NCBI GenBank assembly: GCA_048937405.1 | Contig: JBHLNF010000002.1 | Coordinates: 1 to 64,000 of the forward strand | DNA length: 64,000 nucleotides | Direction: 5' to 3' | DNA from: Promethearchaeota archaeon | Lineage (GTDB): Archaea > Asgardarchaeota > Lokiarchaeia > Sigyniarchaeales > SOKP01 | In this document: one piece after another, positions 21,019-32,156 of the stretch | How positions within the stretch are numbered: position 1 is the first letter of the stretch | Layout of the letters: the number at the start of each line of letters is the position of its first letter | Program-made: the position numbers and the translations under genes | Notes under the pieces: model-generated | The model's database searches: none | What the model was told of the DNA's origin: nothing | Seen by the model: the letters and a program-made list of their open reading frames with translations, nothing else

Positions 21019-23127
21019 ATGGAAGAATCATTTACTCGAGAAATGTACCGTTTAATAGAGCAAAAGATTGAGAGTTTTGAAAATGAAAAATTTCTTGAGA
21101 AGGACGAGAATCATAATCTTGGAATAATCTATACTCCTAAACAGCTTGTAGATTTTATCGTATCTAATATATTCAGAATTCATTTTGAAAAGATTTTGAA
21201 TTATCAAAATAAAACTAAAGGGAATCTAAATTTAGAAAAGATAAGTTATTTATTTAATAATAATCAGAAATTTAATAAAACCTTTACCAAAATAGTTAAA
21301 AATCTTAGGATATTAGACCCATCTTGCGGTTCTGGGAGATTTTTAATATCAATTGCAGAAACATTATATCAAATTTATCGAATTATCAATCCTGAATTGT
21401 CTGATTTCAACATAAAAAAAACTATAATTCAAAATAATCTTTATGGAATTGAAATTGATAATTCTGCTCTTTCCATTTCAAAATTAAGGTTATTTAAATG
21501 GTTGATTTCTTCTAATTTGAATAACTCCTTCCTCCGCAATGTCGACATCGAGAGTTTTAATGTTACATATATTAACCAAATTATTGAAAAATCTGGTTTA
21601 AAATTTAATATTTTCAATCAGGATTTTCTGTTAGAATTTAGATCTGAGAAATTCGATATAATAATTGGAAATCCACCTTATATTGAAAATAAAAAGATAA
21701 AAGATAAAGAATTTAAGAATAAGATTAAAAGTAAATTTAAAACTGCTTATCGTTTATATGACCTTTCTATAATTTTTATTGAGAAATCTTTACAATTATT
21801 GGAAGATAACGGCTCTCTCTCATTTATTCTACCTAATAAATTTTTATCTGCAGACTATGGTATTAAAATCAGAAAATTATTATTGAATGAATCTGAAATT
21901 AAAGAAATTATAAATATTTCATCTTTACCAATATTTCAAAACACTGCTACATATCCTATAATCTTATCTTTAAAAAAGAATGATCAAAATAAAAACCAAG
22001 AAATAAAATTTAAAATTTTAAATGATAAGAATGATATAATTGAAAATAACAGAATTAAGACTAAAAAGTTTCATCAAGATTTAATTCAGAAATTTCCCTC
22101 CAATGTAATTCCAATTTCAGGAAATATAAATTTAGTAACATACTTATATAATAACTTTAAAACCTTTTCGGATACCTATAAGGATTTAAAAATAATATAT
22201 CGACCTTTTGGTTTTTTAAAATATAGGAAACATTTTGATAATATAAGTGATGAGCGTCAATCAGATAATGATTTACTATTAATTGGAACAGGCAATATAG
22301 AAAAATATTATATTAAATTCAATAAAAGAATAAAAATTGCTGGCAAGGATATCAAAATCTCATATTTTAATTATAATCATAATTTTGATCATATTTGGAA
22401 TGAGATTGCCTGTGAAAAACTAATTTTTAGGGAAATCGCGAAAGATTTAACTTGTTATTATGATCCAGGGATATTCACCAATATAACGGGGCTCTATTTT
22501 ATAAAAATTGCTTCATTCAACACTGATCAATTATTCGGTTTGTTAACAATTCTTAATTCAAACATATTAGATTTGGTGTTTAAAACACTATTTGGTACTT
22601 TACATATGGCAGGAGGATATTTACGATTTAACGGGAGTTTTATTAAGAGATTACCATTACCAAGAAAAATTCCTATGGTTTTATCACAATTAGGAAAAAT
22701 TATACAACTCCTTTCTCAATTAAGATATGATTCTAACTCAATTGATCTCAAAATTATAATTAACTCTGAATTTGAAAGTTTTGATAACAAATACCATAAT
22801 CAAATAAATGCACTCCTTAAATATTTTATAAAATTGAGCAATTCTTTAGTGAATTTATTGTTTTTAGATGAATTTTATTTGAAATCTAATTTAGATTACA
22901 ACATTTTAAGAGAATTATTTAGTTTACATATTGAACCTCAAACAATTCCATTTAAATATTTAATTCCTCGATTTGAAGTACAAAATTATGAGGTATATTC
23001 CATAGATGATTTAGATTCTATTTTAACAAAAATAAAAAAATTGTATAACCAATTCTATATTAATACTGATTTATTAAGACAATTAGAGGATATTGAAAGA
23101 AAATTTTCTGATAAAACGAAAATATAG
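21019..23127 (+). CDS. Amino (N6-adenine) DNA methyltransferase, Eco57I/TaqI-like
   Basis: YTP, DPSCGSG (motif I), GNPPY (motif IV), TaqI_C-like LNS...LP tail. Confidence 0.88.
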   Translation: MEESFTREMYRLIEQKIESFENEKFLEKDENHNLGIIYTPKQLVDFIVSNIFRIHFEKILNYQNKTKGNLNLEKISYLFNNNQKFNKTFTKIVKNLRILDPSCGSGRFLISIAETLYQIYRIINPELSDFNIKKTIIQNNLYGIEIDNSALSISKLRLFKWLISSNLNNSFLRNVDIESFNVTYINQIIEKSGLKFNIFNQDFLLEFRSEKFDIIIGNPPYIENKKIKDKEFKNKIKSKFKTAYRLYDLSIIFIEKSLQLLEDNGSLSFILPNKFLSADYGIKIRKLLLNESEIKEIINISSLPIFQNTATYPIILSLKKNDQNKNQEIKFKILNDKNDIIENNRIKTKKFHQDLIQKFPSNVIPISGNINLVTYLYNNFKTFSDTYKDLKIIYRPFGFLKYRKHFDNISDERQSDNDLLLIGTGNIEKYYIKFNKRIKIAGKDIKISYFNYNHNFDHIWNEIACEKLIFREIAKDLTCYYDPGIFTNITGLYFIKIASFNTDQLFGLLTILNSNILDLVFKTLFGTLHMAGGYLRFNGSFIKRLPLPRKIPMVLSQLGKIIQLLSQLRYDSNSIDLKIIINSEFESFDNKYHNQINALLKYFIKLSNSLVNLLFLDEFYLKSNLDYNILRELFSLHIEPQTIPFKYLIPRFEVQNYEVYSIDDLDSILTKIKKLYNQFYINTDLLRQLEDIERKFSDKTKI

Positions 23128-23231: not shown

Positions 23232-23546
23232 ATGGCTAAAAAAAAGACCACTTCAAGTAAAGAGGAGGATTTTGAACTTCCAGATGGAAAAAAGGACGAA
23301 GATGGAGATGAAATCTTGGATCTGAATGATTGGAAAGATAATTTAGAAGAAGATGTCATCTATGAAATCCCAGATAATGATGAAATGTTGGCAGATGAAT
23401 CTGAGGATGAAGAATTTGGGATGGAAGTCGATGAAGTTGTTAAGATGTTGCGAGATGTAAAATGTAAACCTTGTCCGGGGTTAAAGAGTAAACCAGATTG
23501 TAAAATCGCCCATGATTATGGGTGTCCAAAACCAAAAAAGCCATAA
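23232..23546 (+). CDS. Hypothetical acidic protein with C-terminal Cys cluster
   Basis: D/E-rich residues 10-70; CKPC...C...H..C tail. Confidence 0.75.
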   Translation: MAKKKTTSSKEEDFELPDGKKDEDGDEILDLNDWKDNLEEDVIYEIPDNDEMLADESEDEEFGMEVDEVVKMLRDVKCKPCPGLKSKPDCKIAHDYGCPKPKKP

Positions 23547-24645: not shown

Positions 24646-25806
24646 TTAAAATAATTCTATCATTTCTTTTAGAGTTTCAAGAGCTAATTCTATACTTACA
24701 TTCATGCTTTTAAGTTTATTCTCAAGATAATTAGGAACTGACTTTGAATTTTTTATTTCTTCAAAAATGTTAAAAAAATGTTTCCTAGACTCTAATTCCA
24801 TTGAATACACCTTAGGACGAGGTGTAGCATCACTCATTTTCACAAAACATCCGTGATTTATAAAATTATGACTAAATGCGGGAAAGCAAGTCTCCCATAA
24901 TTTTTCTTTTAATTTATTATAAACAATATTAGCTAATTTTAAACAGTATTCTTTACTCTTATTGCTGTAGCAGAAGTAAAAAGGCAATTTATCCTTTTCT
25001 TTATTTTTTGATATATAATCAACGAGTTTCTCAATAACCAGCTCAAATTGATTTTGGGTCAATTTGAGTAGTCTATAGTCTACAGAAGGATTTTTTTTAA
25101 CAAATAACGGTTTTTGAGAATAAGAGATTCCGTAAAGCTTAATTATATTAAAAATTATACCCTCTTTTAGCCAATGATCAAACTTGTAAAGTAAATTTAA
25201 TTTTTCACTTAAATCAGCTAAAAATCTTTCCAATAAAGAAGTTTCATGAAAATCCAATATATAAATGTAGATATCTTCATTTTTCCAATATTTTTGGAGT
25301 AGTTTTTTTACAATATTGACTTGTGGCGGAGCTGAGTATCTGTTTAAATCTTTCATTCCATTATTATATTCTGGAGCAAACGCTCTACGCCAAAATCGGT
25401 TTAGATTCATTCCATTTTTTAAATAATAACCAGATTTGTTATTTCTTTTAGGATTTAAAAAACCATAAGGATTTAATAATGGTAAAAAAAATAAGATTTG
25501 ATCTGGTCTCACCACTTCATCAATTTTAATTTCTTCTTTGTTAATTAACTGAAAAAACTTCAAGATGCTAAAAAGGCCATTATATTCATTATGCTGTGCG
25601 CCAATAAAAACCTTTACATGTTTTATATCTTCAATTTTTGAATTTTTTGCTATTTTAAGGAGAGGGATGATACCTTCAGTTGTTTCAAAAGTCTGAAAGC
25701 TTACGTAATCTATATTTCTAGTCCGTTCTAGTTCCTTTAGTATTTTATTAAATAGTTTATGCCGGTTTTGAATATCTAGTAATGCTATTAATGTTTCAAT
25801 TTTCAT
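24646..25806 (-). CDS. M14-like zinc carboxypeptidase/deacylase
   Basis: GAQHNE, PLLNPYG, NLNR, LDFHE, late MELE; 1 bp downstream of the ATP-grasp stop. Confidence 0.75.
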   Translation of the reverse strand: MKIETLIALLDIQNRHKLFNKILKELERTRNIDYVSFQTFETTEGIIPLLKIAKNSKIEDIKHVKVFIGAQHNEYNGLFSILKFFQLINKEEIKIDEVVRPDQILFFLPLLNPYGFLNPKRNNKSGYYLKNGMNLNRFWRRAFAPEYNNGMKDLNRYSAPPQVNIVKKLLQKYWKNEDIYIYILDFHETSLLERFLADLSEKLNLLYKFDHWLKEGIIFNIIKLYGISYSQKPLFVKKNPSVDYRLLKLTQNQFELVIEKLVDYISKNKEKDKLPFYFCYSNKSKEYCLKLANIVYNKLKEKLWETCFPAFSHNFINHGCFVKMSDATPRPKVYSMELESRKHFFNIFEEIKNSKSVPNYLENKLKSMNVSIELALETLKEMIELF

Positions 25807-25807
25807 T

Positions 25808-27250
25808 TCAATCGATTATTTTACTCCAATCTGAGAAATTAATGATTTTATTATAATTTTTAACGATACTCGTAAATAATACGCAACCTATGCAAAACAT
25901 ATTGACAAAATCTTCTTTAGTTAAATTCAATAACTTGCAATTATTTTCAGAAAACGCTATTCCTCTTTCAACTTCAATCTGACCATTATACCCAGATAAA
26001 TTAACCACAAATTCTTTTTTATTTAGACCACCTCTGTATTCACCTCGAGCTATCCTAGCTAAACCTCCTACAGGAACGATTATACCATTTCTTTGTGTTA
26101 AATAAAATCTTAAATCAAATGTATGTTTGGTTTCTCTCCATTTAATGATTGAGAAATCCGCCATTTCCTGTATTGTATAAGGATAAGGATCACGGTTTTT
26201 CATAAATTTAGCAAAAAACTCTTTCTTACTCTCACTTACAATCTTTTTTATATTGGAGGTATCTTCAGTCTTAGAAATCGGCATAACTCCAGCACCTCCT
26301 GATCCTCCACTAGGTTTAATAATAAAGGATTTTTGATATTTTTTTGTAAGATATTTCAGTTTCTCTATTAATTCTTTTTCTGAAAATGCTTTAGTAAATA
26401 ATAGGTACTGTAGATTATAACTCTTAAGAATATCCTTACTGAAATAGCTAGCTAAATATGTTAAAGATTTATCATCAGTTATTCTAAAAATAGGGTTGAC
26501 AATCATAGATTTAATTTTACGAAAATCTTCCACAATGAGTTTTGAGAATTCCTTATTCTTAAAACGTCTAGCAATACCATCTCCTATTAACACATGAACC
26601 TTTTGGTCTTTAAATTTAATCCAATTATTTGAAAATGAAAGTGAATGGGATAATTGTGTATAATCTGCTATTAAAAACACAACTTCTGCTTTAAACTCTT
26701 TATCATAATTGTCAGTATTAAAAATCTTCACAGTGAAACCCTGGGATTTAAGTGTTTTTCGAAAATATTCAATCATTACAACTTTTTCATGGATTAACCC
26801 ATCATTTACTGGTACTCCAACTAACACAAATATTTTATTAGTTCTTCTCCTACTTTTCTTTACTGCTTGAAAAATGGCTTCAAGATATCCATTATATAAA
26901 AGAGATTGCTGTTTTTTGGTGATAATTGAAAGACCTCTGTGAGATCCTCCGTTAGTCTCTAAAAGGAAAAATCTTTTCCCTTCAGGTTCATCCGATACCA
27001 TGAAATCAATACTTCCTACATAAAATGAATCGATATTATCTAAAACATTATCTCTTCCTTTTTCCATCTTCTCCAGAGCTTTATCTCTTACCTTATCAGC
27101 AAAATTATCTTCTTGTGAAGCTCTCAAATCAGCAAAAGACACTAAATCTAGACCTAATGATTTTCCCAAATTGACTAATTCTAAGTCTGAATCAGAAATC
27201 TTAGAAGTCATTAGTTTTAGGAACTTTGTAAGAAGATTCTCATCCACCAT
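25808..27250 (-). CDS. Circularly permuted ATP-grasp amide ligase
   Basis: N-terminal GSIDF...LLETN, then NP...DDK, IIKPSGGSGGAG, YTIQE, FDLR, GGLARIA, VVNLS. Confidence 0.8.
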   Translation of the reverse strand: MVDENLLTKFLKLMTSKISDSDLELVNLGKSLGLDLVSFADLRASQEDNFADKVRDKALEKMEKGRDNVLDNIDSFYVGSIDFMVSDEPEGKRFFLLETNGGSHRGLSIITKKQQSLLYNGYLEAIFQAVKKSRRRTNKIFVLVGVPVNDGLIHEKVVMIEYFRKTLKSQGFTVKIFNTDNYDKEFKAEVVFLIADYTQLSHSLSFSNNWIKFKDQKVHVLIGDGIARRFKNKEFSKLIVEDFRKIKSMIVNPIFRITDDKSLTYLASYFSKDILKSYNLQYLLFTKAFSEKELIEKLKYLTKKYQKSFIIKPSGGSGGAGVMPISKTEDTSNIKKIVSESKKEFFAKFMKNRDPYPYTIQEMADFSIIKWRETKHTFDLRFYLTQRNGIIVPVGGLARIARGEYRGGLNKKEFVVNLSGYNGQIEVERGIAFSENNCKLLNLTKEDFVNMFCIGCVLFTSIVKNYNKIINFSDWSKIID

Positions 27251-27493
27251 AGATTATTATAATTAAACAATAATTTAAAAAAATTAGTTTTAATTTCGCC
27301 TATTTTGAATTACGACCCCCTAAAGAATAAGAAATCTTAAATACTAATCTTTTGAAAGAATAAGATAAACTAATACTTGCAATCTACTTTTTAAGAAAAA
27401 TAACCAAAATATAATGGAAATTATTTGGTAATCATATTTCTCTTTATTTTTTTTTATCTAAAATAAATTTCAAAAATGGTTTAAGAGATATAA

Positions 27494-27595
27494 CTATAAT
27501 AATAGATCCTCTAATTTAACTAATTCAAAGTCATCATCATCAGAAATCTTTCTTGACATTAATTTCAGAGATCTATTGAGAATATCCTCATTCAT
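27494..27595 (-). CDS. Unannotated 33-aa ORF MNEDILNRSLKLMSRKISDDDDFELVKLEDLLL, homologous to the ATP-grasp N-terminus (peptide gene or duplication relic)
   Basis: Hand translation; aligns to MVDENLLTKFLKLMTSKISDSDLELVNL; TTTAAA box at -24..-29, as for the ligase. Confidence 0.6.
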   Translation of the reverse strand: MNEDILNRSLKLMSRKISDDDDFELVKLEDLLL

Positions 27596-27688: not shown

Positions 27689-28912
27689 TTAAAGATATAG
27701 ATAACCTTGATGATTTCCTTTAGTAGATAACCTGAGGGAACCTAATAAAATCTTTTTGACTTTAATTTGTTCTTTATAGGTTAAATTAGAATATAACAAA
27801 ATATAATTTTTTTCTGGATTAATTGTAAAAAGAAGTCCTATTTCTATTAATTCTGAATATTCAGTCATTAAGCCAATTATTACATAGTGATAAGGAAGAT
27901 TGAGAAGATCATTAACATTAATTTCCATTTCGATGATTTCATCTTTTTCTTTATCATAATCTGCTTTTATAAACTTCATATCATTTAAAGGTATAGAGAT
28001 TTTTCTAAACTCCTCAAATTTCTTTGAAAATTGACTTTGGCGTAAGAATCTTCTTTCATCCTTATTCTTCTCATAGAAGTATTTATTTTCCTCTTTAATT
28101 AAAAATATTTTCCTGTCTTTTCTCAAACTCGAGGAGGTTTTTTCGATTGAATCTAATTCTTCAATAGTTTCATCATGAAATACAATTAAAATATCTGGAT
28201 CAATTGTTTTAATAAAAAAATTCTTGTATAAAATCCCTGCTTCGGTCTTTATCCATCCATCTGTATCAATTAATACAAAATTGATATCTTTATTCTCTTT
28301 AACGTAATTAGCTATTAAATCTCTACATGAAAGGGATACAATAAACTTATTATTACCCTTAGGAAAGGTGGCTCCAATAAACACTGTTTTTTCAGAATTA
28401 ATATTTTCACTTGAAATAATATAATCATTTACTGTCCCTATATTTATTGTTGTGGGTACGTATATAATTTGTTGTCCTAAATCAGAATCTAAATACCCTC
28501 CCTTCAGCCCTGCTTTAATGAAATTATTCGCGAGATATTTAATAAATGTAGTTTTTCCACTACTTATCCCCAAAACCATAATTTTTAGAGGAATATTTGG
28601 ATTTTGCTTTATATCTTTTATAATTGTATCTTTAATTTCAATCCATTTAGGAGATATTGAATTTTCCTCAATTTCTATAAGATTTTCCTCGAAGTTAGTA
28701 TATATTTCTAATTTTGATTTATCAATAATAAAGATAGGATAACTTTGAGCACTGGGTACTATTAAAGAATTAGCATCATTATTTTCTGGAGATAAGTTAT
28801 CTTCTTCTGGGATAAATATCTTTCCGAAGACCTCAATTTTTCCTTCTAATAGTGTTATTCGCGCTGGGCCTTTTACTAATAAAGTATGCCCTTTTTTTAT
28901 ATCCTTAATCAT
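27689..28912 (-). CDS. Clp1/Grc3/Nol9-family polynucleotide 5'-kinase
   Basis: LLVKGPA N-domain, SGKTT, DSDLGQ, DTDGW, ER..LR. Confidence 0.9.
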   Translation of the reverse strand: MIKDIKKGHTLLVKGPARITLLEGKIEVFGKIFIPEEDNLSPENNDANSLIVPSAQSYPIFIIDKSKLEIYTNFEENLIEIEENSISPKWIEIKDTIIKDIKQNPNIPLKIMVLGISSGKTTFIKYLANNFIKAGLKGGYLDSDLGQQIIYVPTTINIGTVNDYIISSENINSEKTVFIGATFPKGNNKFIVSLSCRDLIANYVKENKDINFVLIDTDGWIKTEAGILYKNFFIKTIDPDILIVFHDETIEELDSIEKTSSSLRKDRKIFLIKEENKYFYEKNKDERRFLRQSQFSKKFEEFRKISIPLNDMKFIKADYDKEKDEIIEMEINVNDLLNLPYHYVIIGLMTEYSELIEIGLLFTINPEKNYILLYSNLTYKEQIKVKKILLGSLRLSTKGNHQGYLYL

Positions 28913-29364: not shown

Positions 29365-29892
29365 TTACTTTCTCATTTTCTTATAGCAAGGAATACAAAT
29401 TTCAGAATTATTATATAGCATGATACGAGAACTCATAGTGGATTCTCCACATATTTGACACGGTACAGAATCTTCAATCAAAGCTAAGTCTGGGGGATTA
29501 AAGTCAACTTCTTCTATATTGAATATCTTTTCTGGCTTGGAGCTTAATAAAGATTGAACTCTCTGGTCTCTTGTTAATTTTCTATCACCAAAACTGTTCT
29601 TTTTGAGAGATAGTCTTACACCTTTCTCTGTTCTTCTATCATAAAATGTATAATTAATTTTACCATAATCTTGATGAATAAGATTTCCTTTTCCATAGGT
29701 TGTTCCTAATATTGATTGAAGAGCATCAACACTACAATTATCATTTTCAACAACAGCTACTAATTCTTCATTAGGAGAATAATTATATCCATGCTCTAAG
29801 ATATATTTAGCAATTAGCACACCGATTGCTAAACCTGGACAGATATGTCCATGGAATCTTACTGCTTTTTCCATTAACTCTTTAGCTTCCAT
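29365..29892 (-). CDS. FmdE-family protein with C-terminal zinc finger
   Basis: FHGHICPGL, ENDNCSVDALQ, GTT.GKGNL, CQICGE...CIPC. Confidence 0.9.
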   Translation of the reverse strand: MEAKELMEKAVRFHGHICPGLAIGVLIAKYILEHGYNYSPNEELVAVVENDNCSVDALQSILGTTYGKGNLIHQDYGKINYTFYDRRTEKGVRLSLKKNSFGDRKLTRDQRVQSLLSSKPEKIFNIEEVDFNPPDLALIEDSVPCQICGESTMSSRIMLYNNSEICIPCYKKMRK

Positions 29893-30052: not shown

Positions 30053-30547
30053 GTGAAATTCTTAGTTGATGCAATGTTAGGAAAATTAGTACGTTTCCTA
30101 CGAATGTTTGGATTTGATACAGTATATGCAAATGATTTAATAGAATATTTTAATATAAATCCTGTTCCTGATGAAAAATTAGTAGATTACGCAAATAAAA
30201 ACAACAGGATTATTATTACAAAAGATTATCCCTTATATAACCAAAATAAGGATAAAATTATTTTCTTAAGGGGAGAGGGAATATACAATTATCTTAATTT
30301 CCTTAATAAGAAAATTGGTTTGAAGTTCAAATTCGATATAAAAAAAGCACGCTGTTCAGTCTGTAATTCACAGTTAAATAGAGTTATGTCTAAATCTTCA
30401 ATAAAAGATTACGTATTGCATGATACATATAAGAATTACAATGAATTCTATCAATGTTCTAATCTCCAATGCAAAAAAGTATATTGGCAAGGCTCCCATA
30501 TTGAAGATATCGAAGAAAAACTGGACAAATTTTTAGAAAATGATTGA
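30053..30547 (+). CDS. Mut7-C (PIN-like) RNase domain protein
   Basis: FLVDAMLGKL.R.LRM.G.DT, ITKD, RCSVCN, C..C.KVYW.GSH. Confidence 0.9.
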   Translation: MKFLVDAMLGKLVRFLRMFGFDTVYANDLIEYFNINPVPDEKLVDYANKNNRIIITKDYPLYNQNKDKIIFLRGEGIYNYLNFLNKKIGLKFKFDIKKARCSVCNSQLNRVMSKSSIKDYVLHDTYKNYNEFYQCSNLQCKKVYWQGSHIEDIEEKLDKFLEND

Positions 30548-30864: not shown

Positions 30865-31020
30865 TGAACTACCATACTCTAAAGGGTATGGATTCGTAGT
30901 CCCTATGATTCAATGAGAATCGTAGACACTAAAGGATAGTTCTCTACCCTTACATCATCAATATGATGATCATGATAATATTTCTTAAGAATATTAATAC
31001 CCCCTACTACATCTCTATCT
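30865..31020 (-). ncRNA. Predicted omegaRNA (reRNA) scaffold of tnpB; boundaries approximate
   Basis: Hairpins AAGGGTAG-AGAA-CTATCCTT, GATTC-TCATT-GAATC and the right-end hairpin overlap the tnpB 3' end, as known for TnpB. Confidence 0.55.
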
Positions 31021-32156
31021 TGCTCATACCCACAATGAGGACACTTAAACATTCTATCATTCGGACGGACCTTCTTATTACATATGGGGCAAATAGAAGA
31101 TGTATAGGCTTCATCGATTTCCACAAGTTCAATTCCAAACTCCTCACATTTATTTTGTAGCTTTTCTTTAAAAAGATCAACTGACCAGAAGTTTTGAATC
31201 ATCTCATTGATCTTTTTCTTATTTTTATAATAGGAGGGAATCTGAAAATCTCTAATACCCTTTAATTCTCCGATTACAATCACAGAGACCTGATATTGGT
31301 TCAATTTCCGAAATAAATGTGCTAAAATATTATTAAGATAGTTATGTAGCTTTCGTCTTCTTTTAAGATATAATCTCCTAATTCTATGAGTAGTGTATTT
31401 GTTATTCTCTTTTTTAGCTCTTGCTTGATAATAGGCTATTCTTCTTGAAAGAATGAGATATTCTTGAAATATATGCTCTGATTCATAGATAAAAGATAGA
31501 TCTTCAGAATTTTTAATGTAGGTGGTAAGATATCGCTTAATTCCCAAATCAATAGAACAAATATTCTCTTCTTTAAAGTCTATGGGAGGAGAAGCTACCT
31601 CTTCAGTCTGATACGCATAAAATTTTTTAATATGGGGAATATATTTAATCTCCATAGCTTTTTGCACTCCCTTCCATTTTCTTATTCCTTTATATCTTAT
31701 TTTCATAAGTCCTTTCCTTCCATATTCTTCCTTTAAGTCCTTAGAACAAGAAATATGAATATAGTCCTTATCAATATGGTAACAATCGTTTCTACAAATC
31801 AATAATTTAGGGATTGTTTGATTAGTCTTATAATTCTTAAAATAGCGAGGGATTGATAATTTATGTGCAATATTCTCAGATTTTAAAGAATTCCAAAATG
31901 ACTGCCATGAGTTATCCAATTTCTTTAAGATTTGCTGGGAATATGCGGATCCTAACGATTTATAAAGATCATTGTTCTTTAGTTCCTTACATTGAATAGA
32001 ATAAGATGAACTCTTTATATCTTTATTAAAGAATGCTTGTCGCCGTGCATAATTCCCTAAGTTCCAAACGGCACTAGATCTTACCAACATTTTGTTAAGA
32101 ATCTTCCTCTGTTGTGTGGAAGGGTTCAGTTCTAATATGTTGGTACGAAGTATCAT
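30903..32156 (-). CDS. tnpB: TnpB RNA-guided endonuclease
   Basis: RuvC SIDLG / IGEL / DRD..G.INI; zinc finger CPIC...CPHC. Confidence 0.95.
   Translation of the reverse strand: MILRTNILELNPSTQQRKILNKMLVRSSAVWNLGNYARRQAFFNKDIKSSSYSIQCKELKNNDLYKSLGSAYSQQILKKLDNSWQSFWNSLKSENIAHKLSIPRYFKNYKTNQTIPKLLICRNDCYHIDKDYIHISCSKDLKEEYGRKGLMKIRYKGIRKWKGVQKAMEIKYIPHIKKFYAYQTEEVASPPIDFKEENICSIDLGIKRYLTTYIKNSEDLSFIYESEHIFQEYLILSRRIAYYQARAKKENNKYTTHRIRRLYLKRRRKLHNYLNNILAHLFRKLNQYQVSVIVIGELKGIRDFQIPSYYKNKKKINEMIQNFWSVDLFKEKLQNKCEEFGIELVEIDEAYTSSICPICNKKVRPNDRMFKCPHCGYEQDRDVVGGINILKKYYHDHHIDDVRVENYPLVSTILIES

Follow-up and report, generated by a model that had tools for sequence, protein, structure and literature searches.

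A 64,000-nt stretch of DNA from a Promethearchaeota archaeon (GenBank assembly GCA_048937405.1, contig JBHLNF010000002.1, positions 1 to 64,000 of the forward strand; hereafter the window) encodes on its minus strand a predicted circularly permuted ATP-grasp ligase, P0001, followed after 1 nt by an M14-fold metallo-hydrolase, P0002. Conserved linkage of the two genes indicates that they form a real functional module, and the pair appears to descend from an older cassette composed of RtcB-like, ligase and AstE/DoeB-like genes. We put at about even chances that P0001 is a small-molecule amide synthetase and P0002 an accessory hydrolase for the same bond.

The pair was first picked out by reading the DNA alone (the original prediction), as a permuted ATP-grasp ligase with an N-terminal D...ExN motif and an M14-like peptidase 1 bp away in an Asgard archaeon, possibly serving reversible amino-acid tagging or small-peptide synthesis, with a logic analogous to that of eukaryotic TTLL ligases and cytosolic carboxypeptidases (CCP). 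Most of the descriptive part is borne out: the ligase motifs occur in the order given, the 480-aa and 386-aa open reading frames (ORFs) are separated by 1 nt between the ligase stop codon and the P0002 start, and homologues come from metagenome-assembled genomes (MAGs) of Promethearchaeota (Loki-type Asgard). Both genes are single-copy in the source genome (4.47 Mb, 100% complete by marker genes):

25808..27250, minus strand: P0001, ATP-grasp ligase, 480 aa, unnamed circularly permuted family
24646..25806, minus strand: P0002, M14-fold metallo-hydrolase, 386 aa, cytosolic, HxE first motif

Ligase fold and family

The AlphaFold model of the ligase is confident (predicted local distance difference test, pLDDT, 92; predicted template modelling score, pTM, 0.92) and carries the fold, the ATP-binding Lys and the Gly-rich loop of the ATP-grasp superfamily, with Z of 11-16 to many ATP-grasp structures. 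Structural ranking by Foldseek and VIA-align placed 3k1t, a GshA-type protein, at the top (Z 15.8, 331 residues aligned, model residues 58-470), along with Escherichia coli YjfC (Z 14.6), eukaryotic glutathione and homoglutathione synthetases (Z 13-14, model residues 19-439), and Gsp and trypanothione synthetases (Z 11-13); the fungal ligase Cp1B is a Foldseek match as well. Permuted ATP-grasps (3k1t, 7uk6, 2hgs, 3kal and 2io9) are collinear with the model from residues 19-58 to residues 435-470, whereas ordinary ATP-grasps (ArgX/LysX, Ddl, TTL, TTLL6 and CPS) align from residue ~138 onward only, where they cover the first 223-324 residues of 272-403-residue chains (CPS chains are much longer) and miss the C-terminal metal hairpin. 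Because the permuted class matches over the whole length and ordinary ATP-grasps match in the core only, the modelled ligase is a circularly permuted ATP-grasp.

The residues agree with this topology. The Mg-binding D...ExN hairpin lies at residues 82-100, N-terminal rather than C-terminal and ahead of the Rossmann-like and central domains, and in an alignment of 36 ligase sequences reaching down to ~15% identity its D82, E98, N100 and G101 are nearly invariant. So are R43 and Q46 of an N-terminal IRxxQD motif, K261 of a DDK motif, K312, P313, G319 and G321 of the KPSGGSGG ATP loop, and R381. By analogy with its structural relatives, P0001 is a putative ATP-dependent carboxylate-amine ligase.

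Profile searches place the protein near, not inside, the named families, and no Pfam or NCBIfam model of a named permuted family matched it at cut-off. Its best Pfam match is YheCD (26.5 bits vs a cut-off of 26.8), and the sub-threshold Pfam ATP-grasp matches span residues 280-402; CP_ATPgrasp_2 scores 19.2 bits vs a cut-off of 32 and is matched at the C-terminal end of the profile only. In the Pfam search, GSH_synth_ATP, GSP_synth, GshA (PF08886) and CP_ATPgrasp_1 were not listed at E<=1, and in the Atlas feature search PF08886 clusters appear only as distant look-alikes. The family is rare, since an exhaustive search of 1.84 billion cluster representatives returned just 67 related clusters (50% identity, E<=1e-3).

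An acyl carrier protein (ACP)-like N-terminal domain, raised by weak matches (phmmer against PDB, E 0.013 for residues 4-69; NCBIfam AmcB ACP, 0.048), was rejected: the motif there is IRxxQD instead of DSL, and the helices align with the N-terminal part of glutathione synthetase and GspS.

The start of the ligase is ambiguous. The position equivalent to M14 is the first residue of non-Asgard homologues and of many NCBI gene models (467 aa); residues 1-13 are conserved as protein within the family, and a TTTAAA box 24-29 nt ahead of the first ATG suggests a leaderless transcript from M1.

Hydrolase fold and active site

The model of P0002 (pLDDT 91.3) shows a complete M14 fold over residues 1-386, in keeping with the M14-like neighbour of the original prediction, and the motifs HNE (72-74), NPYG, NLNR (134-137) and DFHE (185-188) are present. 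M14 chains align with Z of 20-21 (~257 residues, 3.2-3.5 A, 14-16% identity), with no statistical difference in score between carboxypeptidases A1, A4, B, D and M and the bacterial homologues of cytosolic carboxypeptidase. The CCP homologues align over chain residues 80-371 only, and P0002 has no counterpart of the CCP N-terminal domain. Residues H72, N73, E74, N134, N136, R137, H187, E188 and E339 are invariant among 22 relatives. Going by motif position (N144, R145 and E270 of CPA), we take these to include the zinc ligands, the Asn-Arg carboxylate clamp and the catalytic Glu.

The first zinc motif is unusual. P0002 reads QH-NEYNG where AstE-like proteins linked to related ligases read QHGNEWNG, a 1-residue deletion that yields HxE instead of HxxE. 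The original prediction had pointed to this motif as a possible sign of a lost zinc site: the spacing is real, but being invariant it does not by itself show that the metal site is lost. The invariance extends with the flanking residues down to a homologue of 28% identity. Given that constraint, the site is probably active.

Family models capture P0002 poorly. No Pfam or NCBIfam model matched it, PF00246 included; among the 22 relatives, 4 match Peptidase_M14 (best 26.5 bits vs a cut-off of 21.6) and 3 weakly match AstE_AspA (PF24827). A profile of the P0002 group aligned to that of the ligase-linked AstE-like group with 92% probability (hhalign, E 6e-7, N-terminal 160 columns only), and P0002 is the sole match to the AstE-like profile in its own genome.

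Distribution and linkage in Asgard archaea

Among 301 Asgard genomes, the ligase is found in 63 of the 68 genomes of the source family and 1 of the 7 of a sister family, and was not found in the other ~225 sampled, even by search with the family profile. Candidate divergent ligases in other Asgard families were rejected, their profile matches being confined to part of the ATP-grasp core. A P0002-type peptidase is encoded by 42 of the 68 family genomes and by the same sister-family genome. Wherever present it stands directly downstream of the ligase, at a spacing of -8 to +19 nt in 34 peptidase-bearing loci (5 over-extended ORF calls set aside).

On the ligase tree, 62 informative syntenic loci require at least eight independent changes of peptidase presence, and one genome retains the first 64 peptidase codons between an intact ligase and the next gene. 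The peptidase has by this reconstruction been lost at least eight times with the ligase intact. One apparent peptidase without a ligase (genome G077) proved to be an assembly break, the contig ending 91 nt past the peptidase gene. Because the ligase stays intact and syntenic through repeated losses, the peptidase is dispensable for ligase function, and a turnover or recycling role fits it better than an obligatory biosynthetic step. The linkage expected across related genomes stands in the sense of adjacency wherever both genes occur; strict co-occurrence does not, as the peptidase is missing from about one third of the ligase-keeping genomes. Three family genomes that are 98-99% complete are without the ligase, the peptidase and the RtcB-like gene at once, a joint absence that, in three related genomes, may be a single event.

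The order shared by the family is Clp1, ligase, peptidase where present, hydrolase, acidic protein and methyltransferase. In nearly all family loci that reach far enough upstream, the Clp1 gene precedes the ligase in the same orientation. P0004 is the only Clp1 in the source genome, so its adjacency may be plain synteny and its membership in the system is uncertain. Three plus-strand genes converge on the pair, encoding an alpha/beta hydrolase with a hydrophobic N-terminus, an acidic 104-aa protein and an Eco57I-type methyltransferase. The surrounding features of the window are as follows:

27689..28912, minus strand: P0004, Clp1-type P-loop polynucleotide kinase (PF16575, 4.6e-27)
23232-23546, plus strand: acidic protein, 104 aa, without family assignment
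21019-23127, plus strand: Eco57I/MmeI-type N6 DNA methyltransferase domain protein, 702 aa
20013-20912, minus strand: calcineurin-like phosphoesterase
29365-29892, minus strand: FmdE-domain protein with a C-terminal zinc ribbon
30053-30547, plus strand: Mut7-C RNase-domain protein
30903-32156, minus strand: TnpB/IS605 OrfB-type protein (OrfB_IS605 and Cas12f1-like TNB domain)

The acidic protein is very acidic in its N-terminal two-thirds, ends in a CKPCPG...C...GC cysteine cluster and is kept in 54 related loci. The methyltransferase and the calcineurin-like phosphoesterase keep the same synteny family-wide, and the FmdE-domain and Mut7-C proteins belong to a conserved block upstream of Clp1; relatives lack the TnpB-type protein in their syntenic block. 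No alpha-E or transglutaminase domain occurs among the window neighbours, as already remarked in the original prediction, or in ~80 related loci, and none of the components matched a PADLOC defence model.

A cassette outside Asgard archaea

A scan of species-representative genomes turned up full-length homologues of the ligase in Actinomycetota, Chloroflexota (Anaerolineae), Bipolaricaulia, Hadarchaeota, Methanohalarchaeum and Thermoplasmatota; their identity among themselves and with the query set is 30-47%. In the ligase tree (FastTree) each group branches as a separate clade, and the Asgard sequences are likewise monophyletic. We counted genes in 14 non-Asgard loci that are flanked by 2 kb or more of sequence on either side. 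An AstE_AspA-type gene adjoins the ligase in 13 of them, either as a co-oriented overlap or convergently, and the profile of these AstE-like proteins matches DoeB (6twm) at 2e-38 as well as other AstE/AspA structures (NCBIfam DoeB, 7.7e-24).

A permuted ATP-grasp and an M14-clan hydrolase are thus kept as a pair across domains, and no other observation speaks as strongly for joint action of the two window genes. The same 14 loci supply a third member: a ~400-aa protein without a Pfam match, RtcB-like as set out below, is encoded within 1.4 kb of the ligase in 13 of them and within 40 nt in 10, mostly upstream and co-oriented. From this arrangement we infer that the window pair descends from an older RtcB-like/ligase/AstE-DoeB-like cassette. 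A 396-aa ORF upstream in locus L052 was considered and is not an RtcB-like protein, and the Clp1-like P0004 has no similarity to the 396-aa cassette protein. No conserved small ORF, carrier or precursor gene accompanies the cassette in the related loci examined. A literature search found no paper on an RtcB-like/ATP-grasp/AstE cassette; the amidoligase survey of Iyer et al. (2009) lay outside that search.

Other genes join the cassette in places. Three ligase cassettes contain HD genes, and three others are flanked by a xylose-isomerase-like TIM barrel. Three Chloroflexota loci (L043, L045 and L054) carry two paralogous permuted ATP-grasps, in tandem or back to back. In Actinomycetota and Hadarchaeota (L036, L039 and L040), an ATP-binding cassette (ABC)-2 type exporter pair (ABC_tran and ABC2_membrane) lies just downstream of the cassette, which hints at an exported product; L036 also has an alanine racemase upstream.

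RtcB-like partner

The profile of the ~400-aa protein matches only RtcB structures in PDB (E 0.024), over the NHF...H region; its Atlas neighbours carry PF01139, and its NCBIfam RtcB match is faint. Invariant N-x-C-G, N-H-F, H, H and P-H-G-x-G-Y motifs fall at the positions of RtcB's Cys and four His, and Asn takes the place of the first metal-binding Asp throughout this family of ~400-415 aa. On these motifs the protein is a divergent RtcB-like enzyme.

In Asgard archaea the RtcB-like gene has its own distribution, occurring in 63 of the 68 Loki family genomes and in 141 of the 301 Asgard genomes, mostly without the ligase. On its own, the family may form a nucleotidyl-transferase or ligase system that is still uncharacterised. 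HD, metallophosphoesterase and GDPD genes often adjoin the RtcB-like gene in other Asgard families (loci L129-L140). The source genome carries it away from the ligase, adjoining MetRS (4e-125), and encodes a canonical RtcB in addition:

G000:C19:64567-65766 (locus L118 8529-9773): RtcB-like gene of the source genome, on another contig than the ligase

In the sister-family genome with a ligase (L139, G282:C101, 1013-6700), the ligase, peptidase and RtcB-like gene stand within 5.6 kb, with a pyruvoyl arginine decarboxylase and a deoxyhypusine synthase between the RtcB-like gene and the pair. The same two genes adjoin the RtcB-like gene in two other sister-family loci (L130 and L133). Since spermidine ligases are among the structural relatives of the ligase, a polyamine link is possible, in this one lineage only. 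A complex prediction for the ligase with its genome's RtcB-like protein scored 0.00; controls were not run, and it is evidence neither way.

A duplication scar upstream of the ligase

The original prediction had included an upstream 33-aa peptide as a component or candidate acceptor of the system. This claim is withdrawn, because the ORF belongs to a duplication specific to the source genome:

27494..27595, minus strand: 33-aa ORF, diverged copy of the ligase promoter and first 28 codons
27513..27628, minus strand: duplicated DNA segment, ~73% identical to 27168-27283

The peptide is 54% identical to ligase residues 2-28 (15/28 aa), and the identity of the DNA extends over ~116 nt that include the upstream TTTAAA...ATCTATG. 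The two copies are 345 nt apart from start to start, placing the ORF within a ~345-bp tandem duplication. By tblastn in ~110 related loci no second copy of the peptide was found, only the ligase's own N-terminus, and the Clp1-ligase spacer that contains the ORF is 438 bp in the source genome vs 25-210 bp in 54 relatives. Absence of the copy elsewhere and the long spacer mark the ORF as a scar: it is, from these comparisons, a partial duplication of the ligase 5' end private to the source genome and not a conserved gene, it is probably not functional as a gene, and we reject it as a precursor or acceptor.

Proposed function and alternatives

Every biochemically characterised enzyme of the permuted structural class joins small molecules, to our knowledge. 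Products of the class include gamma-Glu-Cys joined to Gly or beta-Ala, and glutathione or peptides joined to spermidine. AstE, AspA, DoeB and M14 carboxypeptidases hydrolyse N-acyl-amino acids that have a free alpha-carboxylate. From a dicarboxylic acid and an L-amino acid, Cp1B makes an N-acyl-amino acid, and YgiC and YjfC are peptide-spermidine ligases (PMC12568646). We favour the small-molecule amide synthetase with an accessory hydrolase because of what this structural class joins, what this type of hydrolase cleaves, and the lack of a conserved carrier.

Starting from the observed folds, permutation, conserved residues, gene linkage and repeated peptidase loss, the favoured reading adds the chemistry, the small-molecule substrate and the action of both enzymes on one bond. 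P0001 would phosphorylate a carboxylate to an acyl-phosphate in an ATP- and Mg-dependent step, using K312 and the relocated D82/E98/N100 metal site, and would join the acyl-phosphate to an amino acid or amine through the amino group of the latter, giving a small N-acyl-amino acid or a pseudodipeptide-like amide. P0002, apparently co-transcribed with P0001 and probably translationally coupled to it, would use its putative Asn-Arg clamp for a free C-terminal carboxylate and cleave the bond that P0001 makes. It would act as a turnover or recycling enzyme for the P0001 product and would not be required for its synthesis.

Several observations weigh against this proposal. The tight linkage of the RtcB-like gene across phyla is left unexplained by plain synthesis and degradation, and so is the occasional linkage of Clp1, HD and metallophosphoesterase genes. 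Clustering of the ligase with characterised small-molecule synthetases, named in the original prediction as grounds for refuting it, holds structurally; in sequence, identity to the closest characterised enzymes is just 10-14% and no named family is reached at cut-off. FDLR-type motifs, as found in the ligase, occur also in TTL-like protein ligases, and YheCD is the best Pfam match. P0002 is structurally nearer to classical M14 peptide and protein carboxypeptidases than to AstE/AspA, and its HxE spacing may alter or abolish metal binding.

The unexplained linkages are the starting point of a nucleotide- or RNA-linked function, which we consider unlikely. The ligase and hydrolase would here work with the RtcB-like enzyme, and sometimes with Clp1, HD and metallophosphoesterase proteins, on an RNA end or a nucleotide-linked compound; they could, for instance, attach an amino acid or peptide to a group borne by a nucleotide or RNA and take it off again, or make a peptidyl-nucleotide. 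Equally improbable, in our estimate, is the wider proposal that the pair make and remove an amide within a multi-enzyme system not described so far, centred on a divergent RtcB-like nucleotidyl-transferase, which would couple ligation to an RNA end or a nucleotide-linked molecule, with phosphoester enzymes joining in some lineages. An RNA connection is favoured by the close upstream position of the RtcB-like gene outside Asgard archaea, by its counterparts of RtcB's Cys and four His, by its HD, metallophosphoesterase and GDPD neighbours in other Asgard families, and by the joint absence of all three genes from three near-complete family genomes. Clp1, which precedes the ligase throughout the Loki family, also favours it: a true Clp1 kinase (PF16575, 6.5e-35) lies ahead of the cassette in an Actinomycetota MAG, although Clp1 is reported in only 0.9% of bacterial species (PMC6777427). 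That bacterial locus is the only one with Clp1, however, and P0004, as the genome's sole Clp1, is possibly a housekeeping enzyme that is merely syntenic. The RtcB-like family does not need the ligase, given the many Asgard genomes that have it ligase-free, and in the source genome the two are unlinked. We know of no ATP-grasp of the permuted structural class that acts on RNA.

Reversible tagging of protein or peptide C-termini, the function first suggested for the pair, now looks quite improbable. The ligase would add amino acids to a C-terminus or acidic side chain in the manner of RimK, TTL and TTLL, and the M14 enzyme would trim them as CCP does. Its attractions are the YheCD match, the alignment of the ATP-grasp core with TTL and TTLL6 at Z 11-11.6, the cytosolic nature of P0002 and its Z of ~20 to protein carboxypeptidases, including the bacterial CCP homologues 4a37, 4b6z and 3l2n, and the acidic 104-aa protein nearby in the Loki family. 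TTL-type and ordinary ATP-grasps match the core only, however, and the whole-length matches, the nearest structural relatives of the ligase, are all small-molecule ligases; Pfam TTL gave no match, and the CCP N-terminal domain has no counterpart. Nor is an acceptor conserved across phyla: the acidic protein, once proposed as a conserved partner, is convergent and syntenic in one archaeal family only, and the 33-aa ORF is a duplication artefact. The hydrolase beside the ligase in other phyla is an AstE/DoeB-type enzyme, and the substrates known for that type are small molecules such as N-acyl-amino acids. Genomes can do without the peptidase, and among the Asgard genomes sampled the ligase occurs only in one family and one sister-family genome, beside scattered bacteria and archaea.

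Least probable, in our view, is that P0002 performs a required late biosynthetic step, taking off an acyl or amino-acid protecting group like ArgE and LysK in carrier or N-acyl-protected pathways, or is a scaffold left catalytically dead by its HxE motif: the tight coupling of the two genes and the 1-residue deletion relative to the HGNE of AstE-like cassette proteins speak for these variants, but at least eight losses of the peptidase beside an intact, syntenic ligase are hard to square with an essential step, and H72, N73, E74, H187 and E339, invariant down to 28% identity, favour a working active site.

What emerges is a rare permuted ATP-grasp family, now defined, that has no Pfam or NCBIfam model and keeps gene partnerships across phyla, with an M14-clan hydrolase and, as was not expected, with a divergent RtcB-like protein. 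Known products of the class include glutathione, polyamine conjugates and protease-inhibitor warheads, and for that reason the ligase may supply sediment archaea and bacteria with a metabolite not yet described. Both the HxE form of the M14 zinc motif, which is invariant, and the uncharacterised RtcB-like family deserve biochemistry.

Comparison with known systems

P0002 shares with M14 enzymes (carboxypeptidases A/B/D/M and bacterial CCP homologues) the full fold and, by motif position, the His, Glu, His, Asn-Arg and Glu residues, and differs from them in its HxE motif; it lacks a signal peptide, a pro-domain, the CCP N-domain and the AstE-type C-terminal domain. The AstE/AspA/DoeB deacylases belong to the same clan as M14, and the P0002 group matches, profile to profile over the N-terminal 160 columns, the AstE-like partners of the ligase in other phyla.

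The TTLL/CCP and RimK systems share the pairing of an ATP-grasp with an M14 enzyme, but P0001 belongs to another, glutathione-synthetase-like permuted branch. The narrow and patchy distribution of the ligase argues against an ancestral link to the eukaryotic TTLL/CCP system and says little about eukaryote origins. For Asgard biology the pair is mainly cautionary, being probably no forerunner of tubulin-type tagging. CP_ATPgrasp_1/2 systems share the permuted ATP-grasp, and 3n6x aligns with the P0001 model at Z 12; here the Pfam score is below gathering and alpha-E and transglutaminase neighbours are absent.

Closest are the permuted ligases themselves: glutathione and homoglutathione synthetases, Gsp synthetase, YgiC/YjfC, Cp1B and 3k1t. 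They have the same permuted topology with an N-terminal Mg-binding Glu and Asn, align over the whole length at Z 12-16 and would share the acyl-phosphate to amide chemistry, whereas identity is low, as given above, and the gene context of P0001, with an M14/AstE hydrolase and an RtcB-like protein, is its own. AstE and M14 enzymes cleave bonds of the type present in the N-(dicarboxyacyl)-amino acid that Cp1B makes. The bifunctional glutathionylspermidine synthetase/amidase (GspSA) pairs a permuted ATP-grasp synthetase with a hydrolase of one amide, and the writer/eraser logic proposed for P0001 and P0002 would be the same, applied to a small molecule; the GspSA hydrolase is a CHAP cysteine amidase fused to the synthetase, whereas P0002 is a separate and often lost M14-fold metallo-enzyme.

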